64,000 nt of DNA from an uncultured Acetobacteraceae bacterium (GTDB lineage Bacteria > Pseudomonadota > Alphaproteobacteria > Acetobacterales > Acetobacteraceae). The stretch lies in the NCBI GenBank assembly GCA_964247755.1, contig CAXTVX010000006.1, forward strand, positions 8,022 through 72,021, read 5' to 3'. Below, piece by piece: positions 47,000 through 63,051 of the stretch. A program made the position numbers and the translations under genes. Below the pieces are notes generated by a model. That model did not search any database. It was not told where the DNA came from and saw nothing but the letters and a program-made list of their open reading frames with translations. Within the stretch, counting starts at the first letter, position 1, and each line of letters opens with the position of its first letter.

Positions 47000-47907
47000 G
47001 GCACGGGGTCCCGTGCCAGCAGCGCCAGCGCCGCCTGTGCGACCGCCTCGACGCCGAGCCCGTCGATCGGCGCCTCGCCTTCCGGGCCGGGTGCCGCGAC
47101 GAAACCCGCCCGCCTGCCCACCGGGGCGTATTCCGACGAGCGGCTGGGTCCGAACAGCCCCAGCGTGGCGATGCCGGTCGCGGCAGACAGGTGCATCAGC
47201 CCGGAATCGTTGCCGACATACAGCGCGCAGCGACGCAGGCAGGCCGCCACCTCGGCAAGCGACAGCCGGCCGCGCAGGTCGACCGCGCCGGGGAGCCGAT
47301 CGACCAGGGCCTGGCCCAGCGCGTGCTCCGCCGCGCCGGGACCTGCGAACACCACCGGCACCGCGTCCGGCATCACGCTCTTGAGCCGTCCGAACAGGGC
47401 GGCGAACCGCTCTGCCGGCCAGATCTTGCCGGTCCAGTTCGCGGTCGGGCCGAGGGCGACCAGGGTGCGGCCGCCGGGCAGGAGCGTCTCGGCGCGGCGC
47501 CGGTCGGCGGGACCGGTCCAGGCCACCGGCGCCGGCGGCGGCACCAGGCCGAGCACCCCGGCCAGATGCGCGATGCGGTGACCGGGACGGCGGCCGCCGC
47601 GCATGATCGCCCGCCGGCGCGCCAGCAGGGCCAGGGTGACGGCGGAGCCGCGCAGGTCCACCGCCAGGTCCCAGCGGGTGGCCACGCAGGCACGCCACAG
47701 CGACCACCAGTGCCGGTCGTAGCGCCGCTTCTCCACCACCAGCAGACGCGACAGCCCCGGCATCCGCTCGAACAGCCCGGCCGCGACCGGCCCGCAGGCG
47801 ACCGTCACCTGCGGATCCGGCAGGTGATGCAGCAGGTGGTCCAGCAGCCCGGTGGACAGGACCGCGTCACCGAGCCGGGTCGCGGTGATGAACAGAATGC
47901 GGGTCAG
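46996..47907 (-). CDS. Glycosyltransferase family 9 (heptosyltransferase-like)
   Basis: RILFITATRLGDAVLSTGLL, DLRGS, GNDSGLMHLSAA, LFGPS; apparent CTG start at 47907. Confidence 0.85.
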   Translation of the reverse strand: MTRILFITATRLGDAVLSTGLLDHLLHHLPDPQVTVACGPVAAGLFERMPGLSRLLVVEKRRYDRHWWSLWRACVATRWDLAVDLRGSAVTLALLARRRAIMRGGRRPGHRIAHLAGVLGLVPPPAPVAWTGPADRRRAETLLPGGRTLVALGPTANWTGKIWPAERFAALFGRLKSVMPDAVPVVFAGPGAAEHALGQALVDRLPGAVDLRGRLSLAEVAACLRRCALYVGNDSGLMHLSAATGIATLGLFGPSRSSEYAPVGRRAGFVAAPGPEGEAPIDGLGVEAVAQAALALLARDPVP

Positions 47908-47955
47908 GACGAGGGCTCCGGCAGCGCGGGCGGACCTCCTAGTCTCTTTCTCCAG

Positions 47956-47984
47956 TTGCCGGAAGGCGCCGGCTCGCCCAAGTT
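47956..47984 (+). promoter_or_regulatory. Probable sigma70 promoter of ygfZ (leaderless geometry)
   Basis: TTGCCG-N17-CAAGTT-N6-ATG, no SD. Confidence 0.5.
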
Positions 47985-47990
47985 CGGTTC

Positions 47991-48815
47991 ATGTCCAAGC
48001 TCGCCCTCCTTCCCGATCGTGCGGTCCTGTCGGTGCAAGGTCCGGACCGCGTGACGTTCCTGCAGGGGCTGGTCTCCAACGACGTGTCGCTCGCGGGTCC
48101 CGGCCGGTCGGTGTGGGCGGCGCTGCTGACGCCGCAGGGCAAGTACCTGGCCGACTTCTTCGTGCTGTCGGACGGCGAGCGGCTGCTGCTGGACTGCGAG
48201 CGGCCGCAGGCGGCAATGCTGGTGCAGAAGCTTTCGCAGTTCCGGCTGCGTGCGGCGGTGGAGGTGACGGAGACGCCGCTTGCGGTGTTCGCAGCCTGGG
48301 ACGGCGTGCCGGCCGTGCCGGCGGGGGCAGTCGCGGCGCCCGATCCGCGGCTTCCGGAGGCCGGATGGCGGATCCTGGCCGACGAGGCGCCGGAGACGGA
48401 TGTCGACGAGGCCGACTACGACCGCCACCGCCTGCTGCTCGGCCTGCCGGACGGCACCCGCGACTGCGAGCCGGACCGGACGGTGCTGCTGGAAGCCGGC
48501 TTCGACGAGCTGGGCGGAATCTCCTGGACCAAGGGCTGCTACATGGGCCAGGAGCTGACCGCGCGCACCCGCTATCGCGGCCTGCTCAAGCGCCGGCTGG
48601 TGCCGGTGAGCGCGGAGGGCGCGCTGCCGCCGCCCGGCACCGTGCTGACCGGGAACGGCCGCGAGGTCGGCACCATGCGCTCGTCGCGGGAAACGCTGGG
48701 GCTCGCAGTGCTGCGCCTGGAGCACCTCCACGGCGCGCTCGACTACGAGGGCGGCACCCTGCAGGCCCGGGTGCCGGACTGGATGCGCCTGCCCGAGGCG
48801 AAGGCCGCCTCGTGA
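47991..48815 (+). CDS. ygfZ: Folate-binding Fe-S maturation protein YgfZ
   Basis: FLQGLVSND, LLTPQGK, signature KGCYMGQE. Confidence 0.92.
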   Translation: MSKLALLPDRAVLSVQGPDRVTFLQGLVSNDVSLAGPGRSVWAALLTPQGKYLADFFVLSDGERLLLDCERPQAAMLVQKLSQFRLRAAVEVTETPLAVFAAWDGVPAVPAGAVAAPDPRLPEAGWRILADEAPETDVDEADYDRHRLLLGLPDGTRDCEPDRTVLLEAGFDELGGISWTKGCYMGQELTARTRYRGLLKRRLVPVSAEGALPPPGTVLTGNGREVGTMRSSRETLGLAVLRLEHLHGALDYEGGTLQARVPDWMRLPEAKAAS

Positions 48816-49213
48816 GCGACGAACCGGACCCACCGTCGGTGCTGGACGAGGTGGCGTTCAACCCGGCCGGGCTGGTGGCCGCGATCGCGCAGCAGCACGA
48901 CACCGGCGAGGTGCTGATGCTGGCGTGGATGAACCGGGCGGCGCTGGCCGAAACGCTTGAGACGGGCCAGGTCTGCTACTGGAGCCGCAGCCGCAGGCAG
49001 CTCTGGCGCAAGGGAGAAACCTCCGGCCAGACCCAGCGCCTGGTCGAGCTGCGCCTCGACTGCGACCGCGACGCCCTGCTGCTGCTGGTCGACCAGACCG
49101 GGGTGGCCTGCCACACCGGCCGGCGCTCCTGCTTCTTCGACGCGCTGCGCGACGGCAGGTTGGTCGCGGTGTCCGAGCCGGAGGTCGACCCTGAGCGGCT
49201 CTACGGCGCCTGA
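48812..49213 (+). CDS. hisI: Phosphoribosyl-AMP cyclohydrolase
   Basis: MLAWMN, YWSRSR..LWRKGETSG, DCDRD, ACHTGRRSCF; GTG start overlapping the ygfZ stop. Confidence 0.95.
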   Translation: MSDEPDPPSVLDEVAFNPAGLVAAIAQQHDTGEVLMLAWMNRAALAETLETGQVCYWSRSRRQLWRKGETSGQTQRLVELRLDCDRDALLLLVDQTGVACHTGRRSCFFDALRDGRLVAVSEPEVDPERLYGA

Positions 49214-49223
49214 CACGGAACCG

Positions 49224-50369
49224 TTGATCTGGCTGATGGCCGGGGAGGCCAGCGGCGACGTGCTGGGCGGGCGGCTGCTGGCGGCACTGCGGCGGCAGCG
49301 TCCGGGGCTCAGGTTCCGCGGCATCGGCGGCGTCCGCATGGCGGAGGCGGGGCTCGACACCCTGTTCCCGATGCGCGAGCTGGCGGTGATGGGGCTGGTC
49401 GAGATCCTGCCGCGGATCCGCGCCCTGTCGCGCCGCCTCGATCAGGCGGTGGCCGACATCGCCGCCGCCCGCCCGGACCTGGTGGTGACCATCGACAGCC
49501 CGGGCTTTGCGCTCAGGCTGCTCAGGCGGATCGCCGGGCTCGGCATCCCGCGCGTGCACTATGTGGCGCCGCAGGTCTGGGCCTGGCGCGAGCACCGGGT
49601 GCGCGAGTTCCCGGGCCTGTGGGAGCGGCTGCTCTGCCTGCTGCCGTTCGAGACCGCGTTCTTCGCAGGGCACGGACTAGACGCCCGTTTCGTCGGCCAT
49701 CCGGTGCTGCAGTCCGGTGCCGGGAGCGGCGACGCGGCGCGGTTCCGTGCCCGGCACGGGCTTGATCCGGCGGCGCCCGTGCTGGTGCTGATGCCGGGCA
49801 GCCGGCGCAGCGAGGTGCCGCGCCTGCTGCCGGTGTTCGGCCGCACCCTGTCGCGTCTGGCGGAACGGGTCCCGGGGCTGGTGCCGGTGGTGGTGGTGTC
49901 GCCGGTGGTGGCGCAGGCGGTGGCGCGGGCGGTGCGTCGCTGGCCGGCGCAGCCGGTGCTGGTGACGGAGCTCGACGACAAGCACGACGCCTTCGCCGCC
50001 GCGGGTGCGGCACTCACCAAGTCGGGCACCTCGACCCTGGAGCTGGCCCTGGCGGGGGTACCGATGGCGGTCACGTACCGGGTCAACCCGCTCACCGCCG
50101 CCATCGCCCGCCAGCTGATCCGGGTGCAGCACGTGGCGATGGTCAACCTGCTGGCCGGGCGCCGCCTGGTGCCGGAGCTGCTGCAGGGGGACTGCCGGCC
50201 GGACCGGCTGGCGCGGACGGTGGAGCGGCTGCTCGGCGATCCGGACGCGGCGAGAGCGCAACGCGCCGGCTTCCGCACGGTGATCGACTCGCTGTCGGCG
50301 GGCGACGAGGCGCCCGCCGACGCGGCGGCGCGCGAGATCCTGGCCCTGCTCGACGAGACCGGGCGGTGA
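49224..50369 (+). CDS. lpxB: Lipid-A-disaccharide synthase
   Basis: AGEASGD, LAVMGLVE, IDSPGF, YVAPQVWAWR, PGSRRSE, SGTSTLE; start uncertain (TTG 49224 or CTG 49191). Confidence 0.95.
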   Translation: MIWLMAGEASGDVLGGRLLAALRRQRPGLRFRGIGGVRMAEAGLDTLFPMRELAVMGLVEILPRIRALSRRLDQAVADIAAARPDLVVTIDSPGFALRLLRRIAGLGIPRVHYVAPQVWAWREHRVREFPGLWERLLCLLPFETAFFAGHGLDARFVGHPVLQSGAGSGDAARFRARHGLDPAAPVLVLMPGSRRSEVPRLLPVFGRTLSRLAERVPGLVPVVVVSPVVAQAVARAVRRWPAQPVLVTELDDKHDAFAAAGAALTKSGTSTLELALAGVPMAVTYRVNPLTAAIARQLIRVQHVAMVNLLAGRRLVPELLQGDCRPDRLARTVERLLGDPDAARAQRAGFRTVIDSLSAGDEAPADAAAREILALLDETGR

Positions 50370-51793
50370 GCGGAACCGCACCATCCGACGCCGCCTGGAC
50401 CCTGCCCGGCCGGTTCGGGCCGGAACGCTGGCAGCGCGAAGCGGACCGGTTCACGGCCGTCGCGGTAGCGGGCGACCGGATCGCCCTGCCCACCGACCGC
50501 GTGACCGAGGCCCGGCTGCGCAGCCGCGAGGCCGCCTGCGCGCATCCGGGCCCGTTCCCGCTCGCCTTCCGCTTCTGCCCGGACTGCGGCGCGGCCCTGG
50601 CGGAGGCGCCAGGGGAACCCGACGCGGAAGCCTGGTCGCCGCCGTTCGGTGCCGCCACCGGGTTGCCGGCCCGGGACGAGACGGTCGAGCCGGATCCGGC
50701 CAGCCACGAGGAGATCGCGGTCCCGCCGTCTTCCGCGCTCGGCTTCGCCGTGGCCGGCACGCCGCCGATGCTGCTGGCCTGCGACCGGGTCGACGGCTGG
50801 GTCAGGGCCTGGTCGGAGCTCGGCCGGCGGTGGATCGACCGCGTCCAGCTGCCGCCGTGCACCGTTCTGCCCGCCTGGAGCTGGGCCGCCGCCGCCGACG
50901 CGTCGGGCCTGTCGCTGCCGACCGATCGCGGCCCCGCCTTCATCGGGCTGACCGCGCCGCGGCGGGCGCCGGTGGCGCTGCTGGAGGGTCCTGCGCCGCT
51001 GGGCGGGGCCGGCGTGCTGCGCAGCCAGGTCGCCCTGCCGGTGCGGGATGCTGCCGGACTGGCGCTTGCCGTGCTCGATCGTGCGGCACCCGAGCGCGGC
51101 TGGTCGCTGCTGCCGGTGCCGGGAGCCGCGGCGGAGGCGCTGGCAACCCCGGTGGCGACCGGCGACCGGCTGCTCTGGTGCGGACCCACGGGACTGCTCA
51201 CGCTGCAGGCGGGGCCGGACGGTTCCACCGCCCATTGGCAGGGCTGGCAGGACGGGATCTGGCCGCTGCCCGGCGTGCGCCCGGTGGCGGAGCCGAACGG
51301 CACCCTGCACCAGCTCGCCAGGCTCGATCCGCACACGCTGGTGCTGCAAAGCCTGTCCACTCCGGGCCAGGTGCCGGAACGCCGGGCCGCCCGCGGCTAC
51401 ACCCCCGGCACCGGTCGGGCGGTGTTCCGCGAGAACGCCCGGCTACGACTGCCCTGGGACAAGCGCGCAGCCTCGGACTACGTGATTCCGGACGGCACCT
51501 TCCTGCTGCCGCTGCTGGAGTTCGGCGGCGGCCGGACCGTTCTGGTGCTGTGCACCGGCCGCGACCGGCTCGGCCGCTTCCTGGGCGATCCAACCGCGCC
51601 GGACGATGCGGACGCGGACCACGCCTGCACCCTGTTCTACAGCCGCGGTCCGCGCGTGCTCGAGCCGCTGGACTGCCTGCTGCGCGCGCGGGACGCGTCC
51701 GACCTGTCGGTGTTCCTCCATGCCGGCTGGCTCTACGCCCACGGCGCCCGCGACGGAGGCTGCCATCGGTGGCGGCTGCGCGATGCGGGCTAG
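50366..51793 (+). CDS. Hypothetical protein with Zn-ribbon and beta-rich (propeller-like) region
   Basis: C-x-H...RFCPDCG near the N-terminus, many short Trp-containing strands, no signal or TM seen; GTG overlaps the lpxB stop. Confidence 0.75.
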   Translation: MSGTAPSDAAWTLPGRFGPERWQREADRFTAVAVAGDRIALPTDRVTEARLRSREAACAHPGPFPLAFRFCPDCGAALAEAPGEPDAEAWSPPFGAATGLPARDETVEPDPASHEEIAVPPSSALGFAVAGTPPMLLACDRVDGWVRAWSELGRRWIDRVQLPPCTVLPAWSWAAAADASGLSLPTDRGPAFIGLTAPRRAPVALLEGPAPLGGAGVLRSQVALPVRDAAGLALAVLDRAAPERGWSLLPVPGAAAEALATPVATGDRLLWCGPTGLLTLQAGPDGSTAHWQGWQDGIWPLPGVRPVAEPNGTLHQLARLDPHTLVLQSLSTPGQVPERRAARGYTPGTGRAVFRENARLRLPWDKRAASDYVIPDGTFLLPLLEFGGGRTVLVLCTGRDRLGRFLGDPTAPDDADADHACTLFYSRGPRVLEPLDCLLRARDASDLSVFLHAGWLYAHGARDGGCHRWRLRDAG

Positions 51794-53258
51794 AACGGGC
51801 GTGGCGCTGCTGTGGTGCGGCCTGATGGCGGTCCGGCCGGCGCTGGCGCAGGTGAGCTCGCTCTACCTGATCCAGGACTCCGGCTGGATGGAGCCGTTCT
51901 ACACCGACACGGCCGCGCCGTTCCGGCCGTTGCTGAACGCGCTGGTGGCAGCCTCGCACGCCGACGGCGAGGTCGTCGTCGCCGGCTTCGACCAGGACGG
52001 CCAGGTCCCGGGTCGGCATTCCCCGGACGTGCTCTACCGCGGCCGGTTCGACCCGGCGCGGGTCGCGGCCGCGGTGGCGGCGCTCGACCTGCCGCACCAG
52101 CCGGACGGCCACCTGGCCGATGCCGACTTCGATGGCGCGCTGGTGCGCGGCATCGACACGGTCCTGGACGGCCATCCGGGCATCGTCTGGCTGGTCACCA
52201 ACAACCGCAACTCGCCCGGCAACAGCCAGCGCGTGGACGAGAACACCCGCGCCTTCGCGCAGGCGCTCGGATCGAGCCCGGCGCTGCCGGTGGTAGTGGC
52301 GTATCCGGTGCGGCTGCCGGCGACCGGGCGGCTCTACAGCGCACAGGGGCTGATCGTGTACGGGATCGCCTACGGCGCGCAGGCCGCGGTCGCGTTGCGC
52401 CGATCGACCGCGAGCCCGGCGCTCAGGCAGCTGTTCAGCGACCCGGCGGTGCAGCTCAAGCCGCTGGACCAGGCGCCGCTGCGCTTCACCCCGGACGCCA
52501 CCCTCACTCCCGGCCTCATCGCCAGCCGGGGCATCGACGGCAGCCTGCGTATCGCCGGCGTGCCCGGCGGCCGGGCCTCGAACGTCGAGATCGCCGGCAC
52601 GCTGCGCTCCGACTACTACCCGCACGTGATCGACCGGGCGCGGCTGTCGCTGCGTTGGGACCGGCTGGAGCAGGTTGCCGGCCGCCCGGCGCTGCCGCTT
52701 CCTGCGGCGACGATCGCGCCGGGCGAGGTCGACGGGCTCGGTCCGGGTGCGGCGCTGCGCGTGCGGATACGGCTGGACATCCCGCGCATCGACCGCGCGC
52801 CCGGCCTCGCCGGCTGGCTGCAGAAGGACGTGGCGCTGCACGGCACGCTCGCGGTCGGCCTGTCGAACCTCCGCCTGTCGCTGCAGGACGGGTTCGTGGC
52901 CAAGATGACGCAGGTGGCGGCACTCGATCAGCTGCCGGGGGTGTTCTTCGACAACAAGACGGTGGCGGCCGCATCGGCGGTGCTGCCGGTCACGCTGGTG
53001 GTGCATTATTCCGCCGTGCCGCTGATCCTGGCACTGTGCAGCCTGTCGGTCCTGCTGCTGCTCCTGGCCCTGCTGCTGGTGCTGCTGCGCCGCGAGCGCG
53101 AGCACCTCCTGCCGCTCGACGGGCAGGTGCGCCGGGTGCGGCTGCGTCCGTTCGGGACCAGGCAGATCACGCTGCCCGCGGGCCGAACCTTCGTCCTGCG
53201 CGGCCGCCTTGTCGGGGCCCCGCGGATCGTGCGACGCCCGGACAGCGATCCGCGCTGA
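51783..53258 (+). CDS. Membrane-anchored secreted protein with vWA-like domain
   Basis: Signal peptide (RPALA|Q), LYLIQDSGWME (MIDAS-like), DADFDGAL, IVWLVTNN, beta-sandwich region, TM at ~53020-53090, short tail. Confidence 0.7.
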   Translation: MRARTGVALLWCGLMAVRPALAQVSSLYLIQDSGWMEPFYTDTAAPFRPLLNALVAASHADGEVVVAGFDQDGQVPGRHSPDVLYRGRFDPARVAAAVAALDLPHQPDGHLADADFDGALVRGIDTVLDGHPGIVWLVTNNRNSPGNSQRVDENTRAFAQALGSSPALPVVVAYPVRLPATGRLYSAQGLIVYGIAYGAQAAVALRRSTASPALRQLFSDPAVQLKPLDQAPLRFTPDATLTPGLIASRGIDGSLRIAGVPGGRASNVEIAGTLRSDYYPHVIDRARLSLRWDRLEQVAGRPALPLPAATIAPGEVDGLGPGAALRVRIRLDIPRIDRAPGLAGWLQKDVALHGTLAVGLSNLRLSLQDGFVAKMTQVAALDQLPGVFFDNKTVAAASAVLPVTLVVHYSAVPLILALCSLSVLLLLLALLLVLLRREREHLLPLDGQVRRVRLRPFGTRQITLPAGRTFVLRGRLVGAPRIVRRPDSDPR

Positions 53259-53278
53259 GATCGCGTCCAGGACAGGTC

Positions 53279-53746
53279 ATGCCAGAGCCGTCGCCCCAGA
53301 CCCCGCCGGACTTCAACATCAAGCCGCCGGCGGATGCCCTGCCGCAGCAGCCGGCACCGGTCGCGCCGACGCCCGGCGCGATCCAGCCGGGTACGCCGAT
53401 CAGCGCCGCCGGCCTGCCGGGCGACACCGGCCTGTCCAGCACCGGCGAGGTGATCGGCGTGGCGATCCTGCTGCTGCTGGCGGTCGCGATCTTCCTCGTC
53501 CGCGGCGCGGTGCGCAGCCACCTGATCGCGCAGCGTGCCTCGCCCTCGGCTGCCGGCAGCGCCGGCTGGGCGCTGTTCGCGTTCCTGCTGTCGCTGTCGG
53601 TGCTGATCGTGTTCGGCCTGCTCGGCGACCTGTGGGGGGCGCTCGCCTTCGTGCTGCCGCTGCTGCTGCTGGTCGTGGTGACGCTGGTGCTGTTCGTGCT
53701 GCTCTACCGTTCCGCCGCGCGCGGCCATGCGCCGCGACGGCGCTGA
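53279..53746 (+). CDS. Pro-rich 3-TM membrane protein
   Basis: About 55-aa Pro-rich N-terminus then three hydrophobic helices; ATG 53279 after AGGA. Confidence 0.8.
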   Translation: MPEPSPQTPPDFNIKPPADALPQQPAPVAPTPGAIQPGTPISAAGLPGDTGLSSTGEVIGVAILLLLAVAIFLVRGAVRSHLIAQRASPSAAGSAGWALFAFLLSLSVLIVFGLLGDLWGALAFVLPLLLLVVVTLVLFVLLYRSAARGHAPRRR

Positions 53747-53760
53747 GGAACACACTGCCC

Positions 53761-56700
53761 ATGTCCAGCACCCAAGCGACGACGCTTCCCGACGCCGAGC
53801 GCGCCAACTCCGATCGTCCGGCGGCAAGGCGGGTGCAGCCGACCCTGTTCGTGGGCCTCGGCGGCACCGGCATGCAGATCCTGCTGCGCCTGCGCCGGCG
53901 CATCCTCGCCGGCGACTGGAACGGACGCCGGATCGACGACCTCGCCCGCTTCCCGATCGCCTCGTTCGTCTACTTCGACACCGACCTGCGTACCGCGATC
54001 GAAAGCGACCGGCAGCAGGCGACCGACCCGCTGGCCCGCCTGGTGGCGTTCCGCGAGAACGAGCGGCTGCAGCACGCGGTCGACGTCAAGCGCTACATGA
54101 AGGACATCGACCGCTATCCGCTGATCGCGGACTGGCTGCCCGTGGCCGACTTCTCGCTGATCAACACCGAGAAGGGTGCCGGCCAGGTGCGGGCGATCTC
54201 GCGGCTGCTGTTCTTCGACCAGTTCCGCAAGCTCACCGACCTGCTGCGCGAGCGCGCCGACGGGCTGCTGCGTTCGGTCGGTCGGCAGGACGACCTCGCG
54301 CATCTCAACCTCGAGATCGAGAACCGGCTGCGCGTGGTGGTGTGCTGCTCGGCCGCTGGCGGCACCGGCTCGGGCTCGTTCATCGACCTGGGCCTGGCGC
54401 TGCGCTCGCTGATCCACCCCAGCCCCACGGTGGAACTCGTGCTGCTGCTGCCCGGCGGCTACCACGAGCACCAGCGGCAGCGGGTGAACGCCAACGGCTA
54501 CGCGGCGCTGATGGAGCTCGAGCACGCGATGCGGCCGAATCCGCAGCCGCCCTTCGTGGAGGCGTGGGCCGAGCACCAGGGGCCGGCGGCGAACATCGCG
54601 CCGTACGACGACGTCTACCTGCTCGACACCCGCAACGTGCTCGACGACGGCCTCGATTCGGTCGAGGACCTGTACGACATGGCGGCCGACATCCTGTTCG
54701 AGGATTTCGGCGCCAGCGAGTTCGCCGCCGCCAAGCGCTCGATCGCGGTGAACCAGGCGCAGCACAAGATCGACAACTACGAGCCGCCGCTGCCGGCGCA
54801 TCTCGGCCGGCAGTCGCTGCGCTACAGCCAGCTGTTCTCCACCTTCGGCCAGGCGACCATCGACACCAAGAGCCGCGTGGCGGTGGATGCCGCGGCGGCG
54901 GTCGCGTCCAAGGCGATGCTCAAGGCGTACTTCAACGTCGCCCTGGAGGACTCCGGACGCCTGCCGACGCCGGCCGAGCGCGACGACTTCCTCCAGCGGC
55001 AGTTCTTCCTGCAGCCGAGCGCGTTCCACCACGTGCTGCCCGGTGCGGCCGACGCGTCGGCGATCAACGAGCCGTTCCTCCTCGACCGCCTGCTGGAGGA
55101 CGAGACCGGACAGTCGGTGCTGGGCGGGATCGACCGCGACCTGCTCGCCACCTACCAGTCGGAGGGCTTCCAGGCTGCCGACCCGCGCAACCTGCCGACC
55201 CTGGTGCTTCGCGAGTTCGAGCAGCGGCATGGCGACGTGATGGGCACCATCCGGCACAAGACCGGCTCCGGGCTTGCCGCCGACCGAATCCTCGCCACCC
55301 GGCAGCGGCTCACGTCGGAGCGGCGCGGCGCCGGCCCGGGAGGCCTGCGCGCGGTGCTGTACGACTACCTCGACCAGCGCGACCGCGGCGGCCTGGACTA
55401 CACCATCCGTCTGGTCGAGGACTCCAAGCTGCGGCTGGAAGCGGAGATCGCCCGGCTGGACGAGGTGGAGGCGCGTTATGCCGCCCGCGCCGGCGACACG
55501 CAGCACCGCTTCGAGCAGTCGCTGGACAACCTGCGGGAAGCGGTCAACCGCCGTTTCCCGTTCGGGCCGGACCGCCGCGCCGCCGAGCGCTACCTGGAGC
55601 ACCTGCGGACCGAGACCTCCTACTATCTCGCCATGCAGCTCCGCCGTCAGGCGGCGGTGGAGGCGCGCGCGTTCCTGCGCGAGATGTCGGAGGCGCTCGG
55701 CACGCGGCGCGGCCAGGACGCCGACGGCAACACGCTGTGGGACGGCGCCGTCGCCGAGCTGGTGCAGGGCCGCGTGCTGGTGCGCCACACGCTGGGCGAG
55801 TTCGACGCCGAGATCGCGCTGCTTCGCGACGCGGTGTCCCGGCGCGACGCCGGCACCTTCGTGGTGCTGCCCGAGGCGGATGCCGACGCGCGTGCCATGC
55901 TCAAGAGCGACCCGGCGGAGATCGAGCGCTGGGCGGCGGAGATGTTCCGCGACGAGGGCGGCTCGCGCACCTTGTTTCCCATCCTGCGCGACGACACGGG
56001 GCGCGCCCTGCTGCTCAACCGCCTGCGCGGCTTCGCCCGGGTGCAGCTCGCGCCGCGCGCGGAGGCGCTGCGCTCGGCGCAGTCGATCCTGCTCGACATG
56101 AGTGCGCGCGACCGCATCGCCCTGTTCGGCCGCGCCATGGTCCGCGCCATGCCCTGGCTCGACGCGTCGTTCGACCATCTCGGCGACAACTTCGCCATGG
56201 GCCCGCGCTACACCCTGCTGATCGCGGTGGACGATAAGGAAGCGTTCGAGCGCAACTTCCGCGCCGAGATCGAGCAGGTGGTGCCCACCGGTCGGCTCGG
56301 CATCGGGCCGCCGCAATATCTGAACTCGGGGCTTCGCGACCGCATCCTGATCTATTGCGAGCTGAGCGGCATCCCGCTCGACAGCATCGATCCGCTGCGC
56401 TCCGAATGGCGCGTCTCCTACCAGCTGGAGCAGAAGCGCCCGCTGCCGCTGCACACCCACCGGCAGAGCGAGCGCTTCCCCGACCCCGTCGTGCCGAGCA
56501 CGCGCGAGATCGAGGAGATGCGTCGCAACATGGGGCTGTTCCTGCGCGGCGTCGCGTACGGCATCCTTGCCCGTGGCGCCCGTCCCGGACAGCCGTACCA
56601 GATCGACCTCGGCGGCGGCGACTGGGGCGATGCCGGCACCGAGCGGATCATACGCGGCAGCGGCTTCTCCCGGCACCGCGACAAGGTGCAGACGCGGATC

Positions 56701-57366
56701 GAGGCGTTCGAGCGGGCCTGGAGCCCGATCCAGCTTCTCGCGGCCGCGGCGCTGGTCGCCTGGACCGGGGAGCGTGTCTACGCCGCGCGCCTGCAGCGCA
56801 TCGGCCCGACCCAGACCGACCGCATCCCCGGCCTGGTGCAGATCCTGGCGGCCGAGCTGTCGCGGCAGATGCGCGACCGCGCCGGCGCCATGGCCGGCGC
56901 GCCGGACGATCCGGACGCGCTGTATGGCCGGCTCCGCCGCACGATCCCGGACTGGACCGAGGCGCTGCCCGGCAGTGCCGCCGACGCCGATCCGCACGAC
57001 GCGAACACCGATCCGAACGACCAGCCCGAGGCGCGGGCGCAGGACAAGCGACGGATCGTCCCGGCTCGGTTCGCTACCGAGGCGCTGCAGCGGGTCGCGG
57101 CCGAGGCGCCCGCCGTCGCGCCGGGTGTGGTGTCGGAAACAGGCGTCATGCCGTCCTGGCACCTGTCGATCGCCAGGAGGCTGTCCGGCCCGTTCGGCCT
57201 GCCCCAGCTCGGGACGCTCGCTGCCGGGGGCACGCTGAAGGAGGGTACCAACGTCCGCCTGCTGGGCGGCACCACCTGGCAGCGCGTGCGCGACGTGCCG
57301 GTGCTGCTGGCGCTGCTGCGCGATACCCTGCCGGAGGACGAGGACGCGCTGCCGGATGACGAGTAG
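53761..57366 (+). CDS. Divergent tubulin/FtsZ-superfamily GTPase (Tubulin_2/FtsZl1-like), 1201 aa, with C-terminal GYF_2-like domain
   Basis: LFVGLGGTG, YFDTD, EKGAGQVRAISR, SAAGGTGSG, LLLP, NANGYAAL, YLLD; long helical middle; C-terminal WHL..RLSGPF..QL..L..GG......V...G...W. Confidence 0.85.
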   Translation: MSSTQATTLPDAERANSDRPAARRVQPTLFVGLGGTGMQILLRLRRRILAGDWNGRRIDDLARFPIASFVYFDTDLRTAIESDRQQATDPLARLVAFRENERLQHAVDVKRYMKDIDRYPLIADWLPVADFSLINTEKGAGQVRAISRLLFFDQFRKLTDLLRERADGLLRSVGRQDDLAHLNLEIENRLRVVVCCSAAGGTGSGSFIDLGLALRSLIHPSPTVELVLLLPGGYHEHQRQRVNANGYAALMELEHAMRPNPQPPFVEAWAEHQGPAANIAPYDDVYLLDTRNVLDDGLDSVEDLYDMAADILFEDFGASEFAAAKRSIAVNQAQHKIDNYEPPLPAHLGRQSLRYSQLFSTFGQATIDTKSRVAVDAAAAVASKAMLKAYFNVALEDSGRLPTPAERDDFLQRQFFLQPSAFHHVLPGAADASAINEPFLLDRLLEDETGQSVLGGIDRDLLATYQSEGFQAADPRNLPTLVLREFEQRHGDVMGTIRHKTGSGLAADRILATRQRLTSERRGAGPGGLRAVLYDYLDQRDRGGLDYTIRLVEDSKLRLEAEIARLDEVEARYAARAGDTQHRFEQSLDNLREAVNRRFPFGPDRRAAERYLEHLRTETSYYLAMQLRRQAAVEARAFLREMSEALGTRRGQDADGNTLWDGAVAELVQGRVLVRHTLGEFDAEIALLRDAVSRRDAGTFVVLPEADADARAMLKSDPAEIERWAAEMFRDEGGSRTLFPILRDDTGRALLLNRLRGFARVQLAPRAEALRSAQSILLDMSARDRIALFGRAMVRAMPWLDASFDHLGDNFAMGPRYTLLIAVDDKEAFERNFRAEIEQVVPTGRLGIGPPQYLNSGLRDRILIYCELSGIPLDSIDPLRSEWRVSYQLEQKRPLPLHTHRQSERFPDPVVPSTREIEEMRRNMGLFLRGVAYGILARGARPGQPYQIDLGGGDWGDAGTERIIRGSGFSRHRDKVQTRIEAFERAWSPIQLLAAAALVAWTGERVYAARLQRIGPTQTDRIPGLVQILAAELSRQMRDRAGAMAGAPDDPDALYGRLRRTIPDWTEALPGSAADADPHDANTDPNDQPEARAQDKRRIVPARFATEALQRVAAEAPAVAPGVVSETGVMPSWHLSIARRLSGPFGLPQLGTLAAGGTLKEGTNVRLLGGTTWQRVRDVPVLLALLRDTLPEDEDALPDDE

Positions 57367-57985
57367 GACCCGGCACGGCGGCTGGAGCGCCCTGCTGCTG
57401 CTGGCAGCCCTGCCCGGTTCCGCCAGTGCCCAAGCAATACCGCTGGAGCAGGCAGAGACTGTCGTGGCGACCAGGCTGCAGCAGGTGCTGGAAAACGCGC
57501 CGGCCGACCGGCCGGTGCCGTGGCGGGACGAGGCAAGCGGCCTGTCCGGCACGATCGTCGCAGCACCTGCGACCTTTTCCGGGCGCCCCTGCCGCGCGCT
57601 CCGCTACACCGTGCAGGGCGGCTCCGAGCTGCTGTCGGTCGAGGGCGAGCGCTGCCGCGAGCCGGGTGGGCAATGGGTGGCGGGCCGGTTCGCCGACCGG
57701 ATCGCCGAGACGCCGGCGGCCAACCCAATGATCCGCGACCTCCAGGGGGCGCTGCGGCGGCTCGCCTACTACCGCGGGGCGGTGGACGGCGTCGCATCGT
57801 CCACCCTGACCCGCGCCCTGCTCGCCTTCGAGCACGACGAGCAGGTGCTGCCCGATGCCGAGCCAAGTCCGGACCTGCTGGGGCTCGCCGACGCCGCGAT
57901 CGCGCGCATCCCGGCCGCCGGCTCCTGCACACCGGAGCAGCCGGTGCCGGACGGATGGTCGGCGGCGTGCGGCAGCACACGCTAG
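57356..57985 (+). CDS. Secreted protein: 17-kDa surface-antigen-like domain plus peptidoglycan-binding domain
   Basis: Signal peptide; LENAP..PVPW.D..SG.SG...PCR....CR.PGGQW; IRDLQGALRRLAYYRGAVDG...TRALLAFE. Confidence 0.72.
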   Translation: MTSRTRHGGWSALLLLAALPGSASAQAIPLEQAETVVATRLQQVLENAPADRPVPWRDEASGLSGTIVAAPATFSGRPCRALRYTVQGGSELLSVEGERCREPGGQWVAGRFADRIAETPAANPMIRDLQGALRRLAYYRGAVDGVASSTLTRALLAFEHDEQVLPDAEPSPDLLGLADAAIARIPAAGSCTPEQPVPDGWSAACGSTR

Positions 57986-59062
57986 ATGCCGGACGCACCA
58001 CCATGCCGGCGCTGCGGCGAGATCCTGCAGGCGCCGGTGTCCTTTTGTCCGTTCTGCGGCATGGCGCAGGCGGTGCCCGCCGCCGCTGCCCCGACACCCA
58101 TGCCACCGCCAACCATCGCCCCTGCCCCGCCGGCGCAGCCGATGCAGGCAGCCGCGCGGCAGCCGATCGTGCCACCCGTGGCCCCCACGCCGCCGCCATC
58201 ACCGCCGCCCCGCACGTCGCCAGGCGGCGCATCGCCGGTCCGGGTGGTCCCGGTGCCGTCCCGTCCGCCACGGCGCCAGCCGACGCCGGCCGCTCGTGCC
58301 GCCCGCGCCACCGCGATACGCAAGCTGGTGCTGGCCGGCATCATCCTGGCCTGCGCCGCGGTGCTCTGGCACCACCTGACTGTCGTGCCGCGCGGCACCC
58401 TGCTGGTGCATCTGACCCGCCCGGTGGACGGCACGGTGCTGGTCGACGGCAGCCCGTCCGGCGCTCCCGACCGGCCGATCCCGGTCGAGGCCGGCCGGCA
58501 CGAGGTCGGTTTCGCCGCCCCCGACTGGAGCACGCTCCCAGTTACGATCGCGCTGCGTGGCGGAAGCACGCGCACCGTGTCGCTGTCGCCCTCGCCACGC
58601 CGGGCCACGCTCGGGCTGGACAGCATCCCGCCCGGCGCCAGCCTGAGCGTGAACGGGCGCCGGATCGGGCATGCGCCCATGAGCCTGTCGCTGCCGCCCG
58701 GGTCCTATCGCCTTGGCGCGGAGCTGCCGGGCGTCGAGCCGGACCAGCAGCGTCTGACCCTGGCACCGGGAGAACGGCGCAGCCTCGGCCTGGTCCTGCA
58801 GCCGCTGCCGGTCCGGACCCTGCACCTGTCCGCGCCAGCCGGCGCCTGGAGCGACCCGGTGACGCTGCCGCCGCACGCGCACGTCACGGTGCTGTTCGGC
58901 GGCCCGATCCGGCTGCGGGTCGGCGGCCGGGTGGTGCTTCTGGACGGCGGCGCGCCGGCCAGCCTAGGGTCGCTCGATGGCGACGCGCTGTCGTTCACCG
59001 CCGTGGGCGGCGATCCGGTGCCGGTGCTCCTCCTCATTCGCAGCGTCGGCGCGCCCGGCTGA
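57986..59062 (+). CDS. Zn-ribbon / Pro-rich / TM / tandem PEGA-like protein
   Basis: CRRC..FCPFCG, Pro-rich linker, TM (LVLAGIILACAAVLW), two PEGA-like repeats (GTVLVDG; DSIPPGASLSVNG..IG.APM..LPPGSY). Confidence 0.8.
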   Translation: MPDAPPCRRCGEILQAPVSFCPFCGMAQAVPAAAAPTPMPPPTIAPAPPAQPMQAAARQPIVPPVAPTPPPSPPPRTSPGGASPVRVVPVPSRPPRRQPTPAARAARATAIRKLVLAGIILACAAVLWHHLTVVPRGTLLVHLTRPVDGTVLVDGSPSGAPDRPIPVEAGRHEVGFAAPDWSTLPVTIALRGGSTRTVSLSPSPRRATLGLDSIPPGASLSVNGRRIGHAPMSLSLPPGSYRLGAELPGVEPDQQRLTLAPGERRSLGLVLQPLPVRTLHLSAPAGAWSDPVTLPPHAHVTVLFGGPIRLRVGGRVVLLDGGAPASLGSLDGDALSFTAVGGDPVPVLLLIRSVGAPG

Positions 59063-59076
59063 TCGGCGCCTTCTTC

Positions 59077-60021
59077 ATGCATTCCGTGCTGTCCGTCCTG
59101 CTGCCGATCTTCGGCCTGATCCTGGCTGGCTACGCGTGCGGGCGCCGCGGCTGGCTCGGGGCCGGTGCCACCGACAGCCTCAACCGCTTCGTGGTGCGCC
59201 TGGCGCTGCCGGCCGAGCTGTTCGACACACTGGCGCGGGTGACGCGGGCGCAGATCGACCATCCGTCGTTCATCGCCGCCTTCGCTGGGGGCATGCTCCT
59301 CACCTTTGCCGTCGGCTTCGTGCTCGACTACCGGCGCCCGGTCGAGCGCGCGCACCGGCTGTCCGGCGCCACGATCGAGGGGCTGACCGCGGGCTACGCC
59401 AACACCGCCTTCATCGGCATCCCGCTCTGCCTCGGCGTGTTCGGCCCGGCCGGGCTGCCGCCGGTGGTGCTGGCGACCCTGCTGACCGTGTGCGCCCTGT
59501 TCGCGCTGGCGATCGGGCTGGTGGAGCTCGATGCGGAAGGCGGCCAGGGGGTCGGCCGCACCGTCCTGAAGGTCGCGGTGGCGCTGCTGCGCAACCCCCT
59601 GGTGGCGGCGCCGATCGCGGGCGCCCTGGTGAACCTGTCCGGGATCGGCCTCCCCGCGCCGGTGTCCCGCTTCACCAGCCTGCTCGGCGACGCCGCCAGT
59701 CCCTGCGCCCTCGTCACCATCGGCCTGTTCCTGGCGGAAACCGGCGGCCGGGCGGCCTCGCTGCCGGCGGTGATCCGGGTGGTCGCGGCCAAGCTGCTGT
59801 TGCAGCCGGCGCTGACCGCGCTGCTGGCGTTCCCGGTGTTCCGGCTCGAGCCGCTCTGGGCGCAGTCGGCGGTGCTGATCGCCGCCCTTCCGGTCGGCAC
59901 CGGGCCGTTCATGCTGGCCCGGCTCTACAACCGCGAGGCCGACGTCGCCAGCCGCGCCACTCTGGTCTCGACGCTGCTGTCCCTGGTGACAGTGTCGCTG
60001 CTGCTGGACTGGATCGGCTGA
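59077..60021 (+). CDS. AEC family transporter
   Basis: LLPIFGLILAGY, LNRFVVRLALPAELF, ANTAFIGIP, LLRNP, AKLLLQP; start at ATG 59077. Confidence 0.92.
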   Translation: MHSVLSVLLPIFGLILAGYACGRRGWLGAGATDSLNRFVVRLALPAELFDTLARVTRAQIDHPSFIAAFAGGMLLTFAVGFVLDYRRPVERAHRLSGATIEGLTAGYANTAFIGIPLCLGVFGPAGLPPVVLATLLTVCALFALAIGLVELDAEGGQGVGRTVLKVAVALLRNPLVAAPIAGALVNLSGIGLPAPVSRFTSLLGDAASPCALVTIGLFLAETGGRAASLPAVIRVVAAKLLLQPALTALLAFPVFRLEPLWAQSAVLIAALPVGTGPFMLARLYNREADVASRATLVSTLLSLVTVSLLLDWIG

Positions 60022-60196
60022 GGTCCGTCTTTTGGCGTCGTTTCGCGCGTATAAAGATTGCGTATCGAACTGAATTTGGCGTAATTATTAACGGTTCGGA
60101 AAGATTTCGACACACGGGACAGGTCAGGACGGCCGGACGCAGCGCCGCTGCCGGTCGTGACGATGCGCCCGTGTCCGCCCTGATCGGAGAAACCGC

Positions 60197-62389
60197 TTGT
60201 CTCGAATCATTAGAAAGCACGCTGCACGGGCAGGCCTCGGCGCCGCGCTGCTCGCCTGCACCATGTCGGCGGCGGTGTCCGCCCCGCCCGCGACGCTGGC
60301 CGGCAACGTCGCCGGCTGGGTCCAGTCCGCGATCGAGACCGGCACCGCGCCGGACGACCAGGCGGTGTCGATCGTCGTGCACATGGCGCTGAAGGACAAG
60401 GCCGGGCTGGCGGGCCTGGTCGCCTCGGTGTCCACGCCGGGCAGCGTCCAGTACGGCCACTACCTGAGCGCCGCCGACTTCCAGGCCCGTTACGCGCCCG
60501 ACGCGTCCGACGTCGCCGCGGTGCGGGACATGCTGGCCGAGGCCGGAATGGCGCACGTGACGGTCGGGCCGCTCGGCGCCTACGTGTCGGCGACGGCCAC
60601 GGTCGGCCAGTTGCGCACCGCGTTCGCGGTCAGCCAGAAGCTGTACCGCTACGGCAGCACCACCCTGCGCGCCAACAAGGAGGCGCCGCGCGTGCCGGCC
60701 GCGCTGGCCGCCAAGATCCTGTTCATCGAGGGCCTCGACGACACCACCTTCCTCAAGCGGCCGCAGCACATCTCGGTCACCGCCGGCACCCTGACGGCGC
60801 CCACCGCCCGGTCGTTGGCGCTGTCGTCGGCCGCGAGCCCCGCGGTGCTGGCGCCGCCGGTGGCGTCCAACACGCCGTCGCCCTATTGCAGCACCTATTT
60901 CGGCGACGCCAACGCCACGCTGAGCACCCAGCCGGCGCCTTATGGCAAGACGCTGCCCTGGCTGTCCTGCGGCTATACCCCGCAGCAGATCCAGTCCGCC
61001 TACGGGCTCAACCCGTTCAACATCGGCCTCGATGGGCGTGGCGTGACGGTGGCCATCCTTGATGCCTACGCCTCGCCCACCCTGCAGTCGGACGGCAACC
61101 ACTACGCCACCCGCCACCACCTGCCGGCGCTGACCTCTGCCAACTTCTCGGAAGTCATCCCGGCCGGCATCTACGACGTGTCCGCCAGCGAGGCCTGCGG
61201 CCCGTACGGCTGGTGGACCGAGGAGTCGCTCGACGTCGCGGCGGTGCACGGCTCGGCGCCGGGTGCGAAGATCGTCTATGTCGGCGCGCGCGACTGCGGC
61301 AGCTCGCTGACCACCGCGCTGCTCGACACCATCTACGACCACCGCGCCGACATCATCACCAACAGCTACGGCAACAACGGCGAGGACGTGTCGCCGGCCG
61401 ACGTCGCCACCGAGGACCAAGCCTTCATGGCGGCGGCGGCGCAGGGCATCACCGTGCTGTTCTCGTCTGGCGACGATGGCGACCTGTCGCAGGACAACGG
61501 CGTCGCCACCGGGTCGTGGGAAGCCACCAGCGCTTACGTCACCGGCGTCGGCGGCACCTCGCTGTTGCTCACCAACAGCCGCGGCGCCAAGACCGAATAT
61601 GGCTGGGGCACCTATCGCGACTTCCTGGCCAACGCGACGGTGAACAGCGCCACCTCGATCACCACCAGCGGCCTGACCACTACCACGGTGGACGGCAGCA
61701 CCTTCCCGGCGTTCAGCTTCTATTCCGGCAGCGGCGGCGGCATCAGCCTGCTCGAGGCGCAGCCCGAGTACCAGGCGGCGGTGGTGCCGGCGGCGCTGGC
61801 GACCACGCTGAACGAGGCGAGCGGCGAGTCGGTGCCGCTGACGCCGCACCGCGTCAGCCCCGACATCTCAGCCGACGCCGATCCCTATACCGGCTACCTG
61901 TATGGCGAGACCTATACCATCGCGAACGACGGCCACAGCGACATCGGCTGCACGCCGGAAAGTGCGACCACAGAGTACTGCGAGATCGACGAGGGCGGCA
62001 CCAGCCTCGCCTCGCCGCTGACCGCCGGCGTGATGGCGACCGTGAACGAGGTTCACGGATTGCTGGGCCGGCCGTTCGTCGGCTTCGCCAACCCGTGGCT
62101 GTACAGCCACCGCATCGGCCAGACCGCCAACAGCGCCGGCATCAACCAGGTCAAGCCGCCGGCCACGCCGACTGCGGTGCTGCGCGGCTACGTCACCGAC
62201 CCGAACGAGGTCCGTGTGGTGACGATCAACTCGGTGCCGGACCTGATCATCACCGCACCCTTCGCGCTGCAGGTCTGCTCCACCGCGATCTGCGAAGGCA
62301 TCGACGACGTGTTCAACTACACCACCCCCGGCTACAACGACGTCACCGGATTGGGGGTGCCATTCGTTCCGCTGCTGGCGCTGCAGTAG
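60197..62389 (+). CDS. Secreted S53 (sedolisin/kumamolisin) peptidase with prodomain
   Basis: Signal peptide, prodomain, EESLDV (Glu/Asp), SSGDDG, GGTSLASP (catalytic Ser), GYNDVTGLG; TTG start after GGAGA. Confidence 0.92.
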   Translation: MSRIIRKHAARAGLGAALLACTMSAAVSAPPATLAGNVAGWVQSAIETGTAPDDQAVSIVVHMALKDKAGLAGLVASVSTPGSVQYGHYLSAADFQARYAPDASDVAAVRDMLAEAGMAHVTVGPLGAYVSATATVGQLRTAFAVSQKLYRYGSTTLRANKEAPRVPAALAAKILFIEGLDDTTFLKRPQHISVTAGTLTAPTARSLALSSAASPAVLAPPVASNTPSPYCSTYFGDANATLSTQPAPYGKTLPWLSCGYTPQQIQSAYGLNPFNIGLDGRGVTVAILDAYASPTLQSDGNHYATRHHLPALTSANFSEVIPAGIYDVSASEACGPYGWWTEESLDVAAVHGSAPGAKIVYVGARDCGSSLTTALLDTIYDHRADIITNSYGNNGEDVSPADVATEDQAFMAAAAQGITVLFSSGDDGDLSQDNGVATGSWEATSAYVTGVGGTSLLLTNSRGAKTEYGWGTYRDFLANATVNSATSITTSGLTTTTVDGSTFPAFSFYSGSGGGISLLEAQPEYQAAVVPAALATTLNEASGESVPLTPHRVSPDISADADPYTGYLYGETYTIANDGHSDIGCTPESATTEYCEIDEGGTSLASPLTAGVMATVNEVHGLLGRPFVGFANPWLYSHRIGQTANSAGINQVKPPATPTAVLRGYVTDPNEVRVVTINSVPDLIITAPFALQVCSTAICEGIDDVFNYTTPGYNDVTGLGVPFVPLLALQ

Positions 62390-62406
62390 GCCCTGCCGGG
62401 CGATAT

Positions 62407-62438
62407 GGCGGCGGAGCGATGCTCCGCCGCCTAGTTTT
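62407..62438 (+). terminator. Terminator hairpin between the convergent S53 and lysE genes
   Basis: Perfect 11-bp stem GGCGGCGGAGC-gat-GCTCCGCCGCC followed by TAGTTTT. Confidence 0.75.
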
Positions 62439-63051
62439 GCCGGACGCCCGCTGCCAGGCCAGCGGCGATGAGGACGCCTCCACTCGCTCGCTTCGCCCAC
62501 CGTCCGGCAGAGCGACGCGTCGTCAGCTGCGAAGCCTTCACCGCACCGAGGGCGTAGAGCGTGTCGGTGAAGCCGACGACCGCGCCGAAGGTCAGCACCA
62601 GGATCACGGCCTGCTCGGCGTAGTTGCCGCCCGGGCTGATGAACTGCGGCGCGAAGGCGATGAAGAACACGATGGTCTTGGGGTGGAAGACGCCGACGGC
62701 GATGTTGCCGGCGAACGCGGCCCGCGGTGAGACCGCCCTCCGGGGAAGCGCGTCAACCGGCTCGTTCCTGGCCTCCACGATCGCCGCCAGGCCCAGACCG
62801 ATCAGGTAGAGCGCTCCGAGCCATTTCAGCGTGGTGAAGGCCAGCGCCGACCCGGCAAGCAGCGTATCGACTCCTGCCAGGGATAGGCTCATCGCCATGA
62901 TGTTGCCGGCTGCCATGCCGGCTACCGAGGCCAGGGCCGTCCTGCGGCCCGAACCGATCGCGTAGCCGACGATGCTCATCACCCCGGGGCCCGGAACCAG
63001 CCCCATGAGCAGGGAAGCCAATGCGAAACCCATCCAGAGATGCGTGTCCAT
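62431..63051 (-). CDS. LysE/RhtB family translocator
   Basis: LVPGPGV, G.R.ALASVAG, KWLGALYLIGLG, HPKTIVFF. Confidence 0.92.
   Translation of the reverse strand: MDTHLWMGFALASLLMGLVPGPGVMSIVGYAIGSGRRTALASVAGMAAGNIMAMSLSLAGVDTLLAGSALAFTTLKWLGALYLIGLGLAAIVEARNEPVDALPRRAVSPRAAFAGNIAVGVFHPKTIVFFIAFAPQFISPGGNYAEQAVILVLTFGAVVGFTDTLYALGAVKASQLTTRRSAGRWAKRASGGVLIAAGLAAGVRQN

Follow-up and report, generated by a model that had tools for sequence, protein, structure and literature searches.

The 64,000-nucleotide stretch of DNA analysed here (hereafter the window) comes from contig CAXTVX010000006.1 of an uncultured Acetobacteraceae bacterium, and its forward strand carries a gene for a tubulin-like protein at positions 53761–57366. 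This gene, which we call Z, is preceded by three genes (A, B and C) and followed by two others (E and F), all of which are read in the same direction. The Z reading frame is stop-free over 1201 residues, as the initial annotation of the window had it, and exhibits the codon-position pattern of a real gene, with a third-position GC content of 0.86–0.97 over its entire length in a GC3 frame plot. A GAGGA ribosome-binding site is located ~10 nt 5ˊ of the ATG. Among the 85 homologues of Z, nearly all are ~1200 residues long and carry the same two domains, which are Tubulin_2 and GYF_2.

Long spurious open reading frames (ORFs) are plentiful in the window because its overall GC content is 71%. A 1282-residue antisense ORF (53704–57552, minus strand) spans all of Z, but has the wrong codon-position GC content and was rejected as a high-GC artefact. 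An in-frame TTG at 53209, which would yield a protein of 1385 residues, was likewise rejected as the start of Z. Upstream of 53761, this frame runs out of register through genes B and C and reads as noise rich in Arg and Ala, and therefore 53761 is the right start.

Z is a member of the FtsZl1 ('FtsZ-like 1') family, which is represented in Pfam by Tubulin_2 (PF13809). The match to this profile spans residues 29–384 with an E-value of 1.8e-51 and a score of 175.9 bits against a cut-off of 27, covers profile positions 1–352 of 356, and was recovered also by a whole-genome profile scan. The classical Tubulin/FtsZ profile (PF00091) reaches 12 bits against a cut-off of 33, and neither FtsZ_C nor Tubulin_C gives a Pfam match in Z. 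There is no meaningful match for Z in NCBIfam, and a phmmer search with residues 1–450 against the sequences of the Protein Data Bank (PDB) returned nothing relevant.

The Pfam family PF13809 is equivalent to the set of FtsZ-like sequences that Makarova and Koonin named FtsZl1 in a computational description published in 2010 (Biol Direct 5:33; PMC2875224). By their account, these proteins have, at the N-terminus, a domain resembling FtsZ with a loop of the GGGTG(S/T)G type and family-specific inserts between T1 and T4, followed by an extended coiled coil and a helical C-terminal domain. The T6-H7/T7 region is not confidently identifiable, and the C-terminal domain of FtsZ and tubulin is absent. 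The proteins coexist with a normal FtsZ, are assigned a role other than division, and are encoded in operons with vWA, OmpA-like and peptidoglycan-binding proteins together with membrane proteins. Membrane remodelling or vesicle biogenesis was proposed as their function, and the authors left open whether filaments form by a new mechanism or do not form at all (PMC2875224). In a 2023 phylogeny of the superfamily, Tubulin_2 proteins serve only as a divergent outgroup, and our literature search for experimental work on FtsZl1/Tubulin_2 returned the 2010 paper and citations that treat the family as an outgroup.

Z shares with FtsZl1 the FtsZ-like N-terminal domain, the GGGTG(S/T)G-type loop, the inserts between T1 and T4, and the coiled coil with its helical end. 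It also shares the lack of an identifiable T7 or C-terminal domain, the coexistence with a canonical FtsZ, and an operon encoding exported or membrane proteins, among them a peptidoglycan-binding protein and a putative vWA-type protein. The features that the initial annotation had read from this gene were thus already published for the family in 2010, such that its reading is correct but is a rediscovery. Several aspects of Z differ from the published description. The proteobacterial ~1200-residue subfamily to which Z belongs ends in a GYF_2 domain. In addition, the core partners of Z are fixed (A, B and C), and only B among them is vWA-like, and weakly so. In contrast to the published operons, we saw neither a gene for a Ser/Thr kinase nor one for a P-loop GTPase in the six-gene cassette.

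A tubulin-like head with a basic stretch in place of T7

The N-terminal region was modelled with AlphaFold2 (residues 1–460) by using an alignment of 49 homologues with identities down to 26%, and this collection also serves for the conservation counts given below. The head model has a mean predicted local distance difference test (pLDDT) score of 74.7, with values above 80 across most of the core. Among the matches listed in a Foldseek search against the PDB, only CetZ, TubZ, FtsZ, tubulins and OdinTubulin are found, and 97 matches have an E-value of 1e-3 or better. Alignment with VIA-align gives Z-scores of 17–19.2 over 190–230 residues at 2.7–3.7 Å for CetZ, tubulins and FtsZ, wherein model residues 25–367 superpose on residues 1–272 of tubulin and 10–226 of Escherichia coli FtsZ. 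The comparison with FtsZ, TubZ and CetZ that the initial annotation had called for therefore places the head on the tubulin/FtsZ fold, and the proposed superfamily membership is supported by both the Tubulin_2 match and this structural likeness. When the head alignment was compared by hhalign with the FtsZ of the same genome, the T4 loop alone was aligned, with a probability of 1.2%. Therefore, homology to FtsZ needs the fold and is not demonstrable in this way by sequence.

According to the model, the first ~360 residues of Z form a tubulin/FtsZ nucleotide-binding fold with intact T1–T6 loops and an H7-like helix. The Tubulin_2 domain proper is encoded at 53845–54912 (plus strand). Strand S1 (residues 28–33) leads into T1 (GLGGTG, 32–37), and S2 (67–73) leads into T2 (FDTD, 72–75, which includes D73-T-D). 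A family-specific insert of ~60 residues follows T2 in the model. The T3 loop (GAGQ, 139–142) precedes helix H3, after which two extra, family-specific helices are predicted. Next, S4 (191–197) is followed by T4 (AGGTGSG, residues 199–205, at 54355–54375 on the plus strand), and S5 (223–229) is followed by T5 (P-G-G, with LLLP at 228–231). All five of these motifs had been recognized previously from the sequence of Z, and each follows the strand expected for its loop. The initial annotation had also listed NANGYAAL among the nucleotide-binding loops. This sequence is present at residues 243–250, but it sits inside helix H5 (239–257) and is not a loop. In the remainder of the fold, S6 (284–288) leads into T6 (D289-T-R-N292), and an H7-like helix spans residues 301–314.

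Conservation is concentrated at these sites. Residues G34, G35 and G37 of T1, D73 of T2, G139–G141 of T3, and G200, G201, T202, G203 and G205 of T4 are invariant in all 49 homologues, and D289 and N292 of T6 as well as D310 of H7 are present in 48. The Y305..D310-I-L segment of Z has the same spacing as F182..D187-V-L in FtsZ. Given the model, T6 and a short H7 are recognizable, which goes beyond the sequence analysis of 2010. Because the nucleotide-contacting positions remain invariant or nearly so down to 26% identity, GTP binding by Z is probably retained.

The stretch that follows the H7-like helix is different in character. In FtsZ and tubulin polymers, an acidic T7 loop and a C-terminal activation domain complete the active site across subunits. 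The equivalent stretch of Z (residues 318–336, encoded at 54712–54768 on the plus strand) is basic, as judged from the alignment, and carries the family pattern K-R-S-x-x-V-N-Q-x-Q-x-K. All 49 homologues have K325, R326 and N331 in this stretch, and 48 have K336. Apart from glycines, the best-conserved residues of the family lie here. Neither a NxDFAD-type T7 in Z nor a conserved Asp or Glu at residues 318–336 among the 49 homologues is found, in agreement with the earlier observation that an FtsZ T7 signature is not evident. Residues 318–331 are poorly modelled (pLDDT below 50). Counting from D310, N331 would coincide with the leading Asn in the T7 motif of FtsZ, and the positions of the catalytic Asp residues of FtsZ would be occupied by a variable residue and K336. 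If this spacing holds, K336 recalls beta-tubulin, in which a Lys replaces the catalytic Glu of alpha-tubulin. In addition, the head model includes no beta-sheet activation domain after residue 364, where helices are predicted instead, and the structural alignments to tubulin and FtsZ end at model residues 362–372.

Relative to canonical FtsZ, CetZ, TubZ and tubulins, Z has the same nucleotide-binding fold through H7 (Z-scores 17–19) and the same order of T1–T6, at ~13–18% identity. However, it lacks FtsZ_C or Tubulin_C and an acidic T7, and it carries ~800 extra residues. Its locus also lacks a dcw, plasmid-partition or phage context. Z was previously suggested not to be the division FtsZ, and this conclusion stands because a canonical FtsZ of 533 residues (with Tubulin and FtsZ_C domains) adjoins ftsA on another contig (C1) of the same genome. 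There is one Tubulin_2 gene in this genome, and its neighbours (lpxB, A, B, C, E and F) do not form a dcw/ftsA context.

A family-specific helical body and a GYF_2 tail

The remainder of Z was modelled separately (residues 436–1201). This body model has a pLDDT score of 85.9 and a predicted template modelling (pTM) score of 0.51, and the pTM value suggests that the body is composed of mobile modules, although the model is confident. By our own count from the listed secondary structure elements, ~55% of the 766 residues are helical; the model further contains a number of small alpha/beta modules and, at its end, a domain rich in beta structure. The most prominent element is a long antiparallel helical hairpin (residues 544–646, encoded at 55390–55698 on the plus strand) with a pLDDT score above 90, whose helices comprise 53 and 42 residues (544–596 and 605–646; model positions 109–161 and 170–211). 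The earlier description of ~750 residues of helical, partly coiled-coil sequence is therefore roughly right.

A Foldseek search of the body against the PDB yielded no match with an E-value of 1e-3 or better, and the only high-probability entries are GYF domains. An exhaustive VIA search returned, besides GYF, generic helical hairpins with Z-scores of 8 or less, which is below the noise mark for helical models. When the body was submitted to the ESM Atlas as one 766-residue query, only its own Tubulin_2 plus GYF_2 cluster was found. Similarly, a body profile searched against 1.84 billion representative sequences matches almost only at positions ~430–1220 of ~1200-residue tubulin-like proteins, or fragments of these, and the remaining matches are GYF_2 repeats. 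The body of Z is family-specific.

The C-terminal GYF_2 domain (PF14237) occupies residues 1133–1181 and is encoded at 57157–57303 (plus strand). The presence of a GYF_2-like end had been noted from the sequence, and it is supported here by a Pfam score just above the threshold (26.7 bits against a cut-off of 25.8) and by the predicted fold. The top Foldseek match of the tail is the GYF domain of GltJ (7z3c, probability 1.0), and the GYF domains of Smy2 and GIGYF are also recovered with this probability. VIA aligns 58 residues of the tail (model residues 694–751) with a GYF domain at 2.0 Å, with a Z-score of 8.2.

GltJ is a component of the Agl-Glt gliding machinery of Myxococcus xanthus, and both it and Z carry a GYF domain of the bacterial type. 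Through a non-canonical face, the GltJ domain binds a proline-rich segment in AglZ, a coiled-coil protein, and in this manner docks a cytoplasmic protein onto an envelope-spanning complex (PMC11135422). Because of this precedent, docking on a proline-rich sequence is our best-founded guess for the function of the Z tail. Protein F of the present locus resembles the N-terminus of GltJ in that it has a Zn-ribbon, a proline-rich linker and a transmembrane (TM) segment. However, the GYF domain is carried here by the giant cytoplasmic protein, versus a membrane protein in the case of GltJ, and the resemblance between Z and GltJ is confined to one domain of 60–70 residues. Among the annotated neighbours at 46996–63051, we saw neither MglA/MglB genes nor genes of the Agl-Glt machinery. 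A complex prediction for residues 436–1201 of Z with protein C gave scores of 0.16 and 0.11 against a mark of 0.32, values that say nothing either way.

The A-B-C-Z cassette, its neighbours and its distribution

Z is the fourth gene of a conserved cassette with the order A-B-C-Z. Linkage was counted by tblastn over 80 fetched loci, among which 77 have DNA upstream of Z. Gene B is directly upstream of Z in 77 of these 77 loci, A was detected in 48 of the 80 and C in 56, and the same order is found in alpha-, beta- and gammaproteobacteria. In three distant loci, gene calls reveal two proteins of ~480 residues and one of ~160 residues, followed by Z. Genes E (11 of 80 loci) and F (15 of 80) are lineage-specific accessory genes, as all of their occurrences are in Acetobacteraceae. 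In two loci from metagenome-assembled genomes of uncultured Acetobacteraceae (L063 and L064), the order is B-C-A-Z, and E and F lie immediately upstream on the opposite strand. Even in this rearranged form, the two accessory genes remain beside the core.

Gene A (50366–51793, plus strand, in the frame supported by the GC3 plot) encodes a cytoplasmic protein of 475 residues. It has no Pfam match, and neither a signal peptide nor a TM segment was seen in its translation. Invariant Trp and Gly residues recur at intervals, and there is a weak lead in the ESM Atlas to beta-propeller clusters, which together suggest that A may be a beta-propeller.

Gene B (51783–53258, plus strand) encodes an exported vWA-like protein of 491 residues. 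Its sequence begins with a signal-peptide-like N-terminus, followed by a putative vWA domain, a beta-rich region, one C-terminal TM helix, and a conserved basic cytoplasmic tail that carries an L-R-P-F motif. The assignment is based on an ESM Atlas cluster that is named 'putative VWA domain-containing protein' and that B matches with a score of 0.98. Clusters of VWA_2 were weaker leads, and a B profile searched against PDB sequences gave nothing. A W-I-F-T-N-N-x-N sequence stands in place of the TDG-type strand of vWA domains, and the metal site of B is probably lost or altered, as judged from its residues.

Gene C (53279–53746, plus strand) encodes a small protein of 155 residues with three TM helices, as seen from its translation and from a TM scan of homologues. 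In an alignment of 36 sequences, the N-terminal tail is of low complexity and includes a conserved G/D-F-x-[LI]-P-x-P motif, the first loop is basic and contains an invariant A..G-W, and the C-terminus is basic as well. The positive-inside rule would place the N-terminal tail in the periplasm. Its motif is kept from Acetobacteraceae to Acinetobacter and Thiodictyon.

Downstream of Z, gene E (57356–57985, plus strand) encodes an exported protein with a signal peptide and the Pfam domains 17kDa_Anti_2 and PG_binding_1. Gene F (57986–59062, plus strand) encodes a protein with a Zn-ribbon (Zn_Ribbon_1), one TM helix and a periplasmic PEGA domain. The N-terminal region of F comprises ~110 residues, including a proline-rich cytoplasmic stretch of ~70 residues.

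The cassette lies within a longer run of genes on the plus strand, whose order follows from frame analysis and Pfam matches. A ygfZ-like gene (47991–48815) is followed by a hisI-like gene (PRA-CH, E-value 1.8e-36) within ~48750–49210, whose start is not fixed and whose frame is hidden inside a longer ORF. Because the hisI-like gene occupies 48752–49210, the start of the adjacent lpxB gene (~49210–50369) is probably near 49210 and not at the TTG at 48957. The lpxB gene is found beside the cassette only in the six closest relatives among the 80 loci. From lpxB to a gene for an AEC-family transporter (59077–60021), the junctions are overlaps of 4–11 nt or gaps of 0–20 nt, and the first terminator-like hairpin on this strand is located at 60010, with none earlier. 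Beyond it lies a gene for a sedolisin-type S53 peptidase (60197–62389, plus strand) with a Pro-kumamolisin activation domain and a Peptidase_S8 domain, which is present beside the cassette in one related locus only. A strong terminator-like hairpin (62407–62431) is located 3ˊ of this gene, followed by a gene for a LysE-family exporter on the minus strand (62431–63051).

At least 538 related loci are present in contigs sampled at one genome per species, and nearly all are from Pseudomonadota among the matches listed. Homologues of Z with ~1200 residues and the two Pfam domains are found in Acetobacteraceae, Methylobacterium, Aureimonas, Consotaella, Caulobacteraceae, Janthinobacterium, Massilia, Azoarcus, Acinetobacter, Stenotrophomonas, Endozoicomonas, Thiodictyon and others. 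Some of the carriers, such as Acinetobacter calcoaceticus, Janthinobacterium and Massilia, are genetically tractable. Within the Acetobacteraceae, Z is found in three of 120 other sampled genomes, each from another genus, and therefore the distribution is patchy. The genomic contexts also vary. In Thiodictyon sp. (L004/L033), A-B-C-Z lies amid genes of the tellurite-resistance type (those for TerD, TerC, TerB, two FGE-sulfatases and AIM24), with TerD directly downstream of Z. IS66 elements are present near the cassette in Consotaella, and DUF4365 and Uma2 genes are present in another locus.

A proposed scaffold between envelope and cytoplasm

When taken together, we consider it likely that this FtsZl1 protein serves as a GTP-regulated cytoplasmic scaffold of an envelope-spanning complex. 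In such an arrangement, Z would bind GTP and act as a nucleotide-regulated scaffold or switch, which the cytoplasmic tail of B and/or the cytoplasmic loop of C would keep at the inner membrane. Events in the envelope, for which the periplasmic portions of B, C, E and F would serve as sensors or anchors, would be coupled by Z to the cytoplasm. The GYF_2 domain would dock on a proline-rich sequence, and F, with its proline-rich cytoplasmic stretch, offers the best candidate at this locus. Any hydrolysis of GTP would not proceed via the canonical Asp/Glu of T7, and would depend on a partner or on some other element, for which the invariant K325/R326 stretch is an example.

Several points weigh against this proposal. 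The GTP binding, hydrolysis, oligomeric state and partners of Z are all inferred, and the literature searched holds no biochemical or genetic data for any member of the family. The T7 alignment of Z with FtsZ goes by spacing alone because the stretch is modelled with pLDDT below 50. The vWA character of B is weak at the sequence level, since Pfam VWA matches one of 33 B members (E-value 0.008), and the metal ion-dependent adhesion site (MIDAS) position reads an invariant Q-N-S-G-W-M where vWA proteins have DxSxS. Furthermore, E and F are found only in Acetobacteraceae and GYF_2 is conserved throughout, and therefore the general ligand of the GYF domain must be another sequence. The proline motif of C is predicted to be periplasmic and would therefore be beyond the reach of a cytoplasmic GYF domain.

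A different possibility, which we regard as unlikely, is that Z forms GTP-dependent cytomotive filaments through a non-canonical longitudinal interface and, tethered by B and C, remodels or moves the membrane. The characterised relatives of the tubulin/FtsZ fold, to which Foldseek and VIA assign the head, are all known to polymerise. Membrane partners are conserved in the Z operon, and the invariant K325-R326...N331...K336 residues lie in a surface-loop-like stretch where T7 meets the nucleotide of the next subunit, and could form a basic finger. This idea, which is the published hypothesis of membrane remodelling or vesicle biogenesis, must contend with the absence from Z of both a C-terminal activation domain and an acidic T7, and with an 800-residue body that would crowd a protofilament if carried by each subunit. 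Makarova and Koonin themselves left open that there are no filaments at all (PMC2875224). The fold might also have been put to a third use, although we think this doubtful as well. Rather than a T7-activated polymer, the head would then be a GTP switch on a dynamin- or SMC-like helical stalk, with dimerisation or oligomerisation via the hairpin and activation by a basic K-R finger or by partner A. By linking B, as a vWA-like periplasmic receptor, to the cytoplasm, it would constitute a bacterial outside-in device akin to an 'integrin plus cytoskeletal adaptor'.

We find it quite improbable that the cassette serves in stress responses or in conflicts, such as those with phages, as an accessory system in which B senses envelope damage or an invader and Z is the signalling or effector hub. 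None of the six cassette proteins has a PADLOC match, and the conserved core lacks a nuclease, protease or pore-type effector. The patchy spread, with three of 120 family genomes yet at least 538 related loci, and the varied contexts (the Ter cluster in Thiodictyon, IS66 in Consotaella, and DUF4365 with Uma2) would suit such a system, but the cassette described here lies amid housekeeping envelope genes (lpxB and a heptosyltransferase gene) without the marks of a mobile element.

FtsZl1 is widespread and, within the tubulin/FtsZ superfamily, forms the branch that has diverged most. To learn whether a GTPase of the tubulin fold can polymerise when it lacks both T7 and the activation domain, and which role its conserved envelope cassette plays, would close a real gap in bacterial cell biology. 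The Z gene of this bacterium is a typical member of its family and not a new kind of object. The present analysis adds an assignment of T6 and H7 from the model, the basic K-R...N...K stretch that is invariant at the position of T7, the count of the A-B-C-Z linkage, and conserved motifs in the tail of B and in C.

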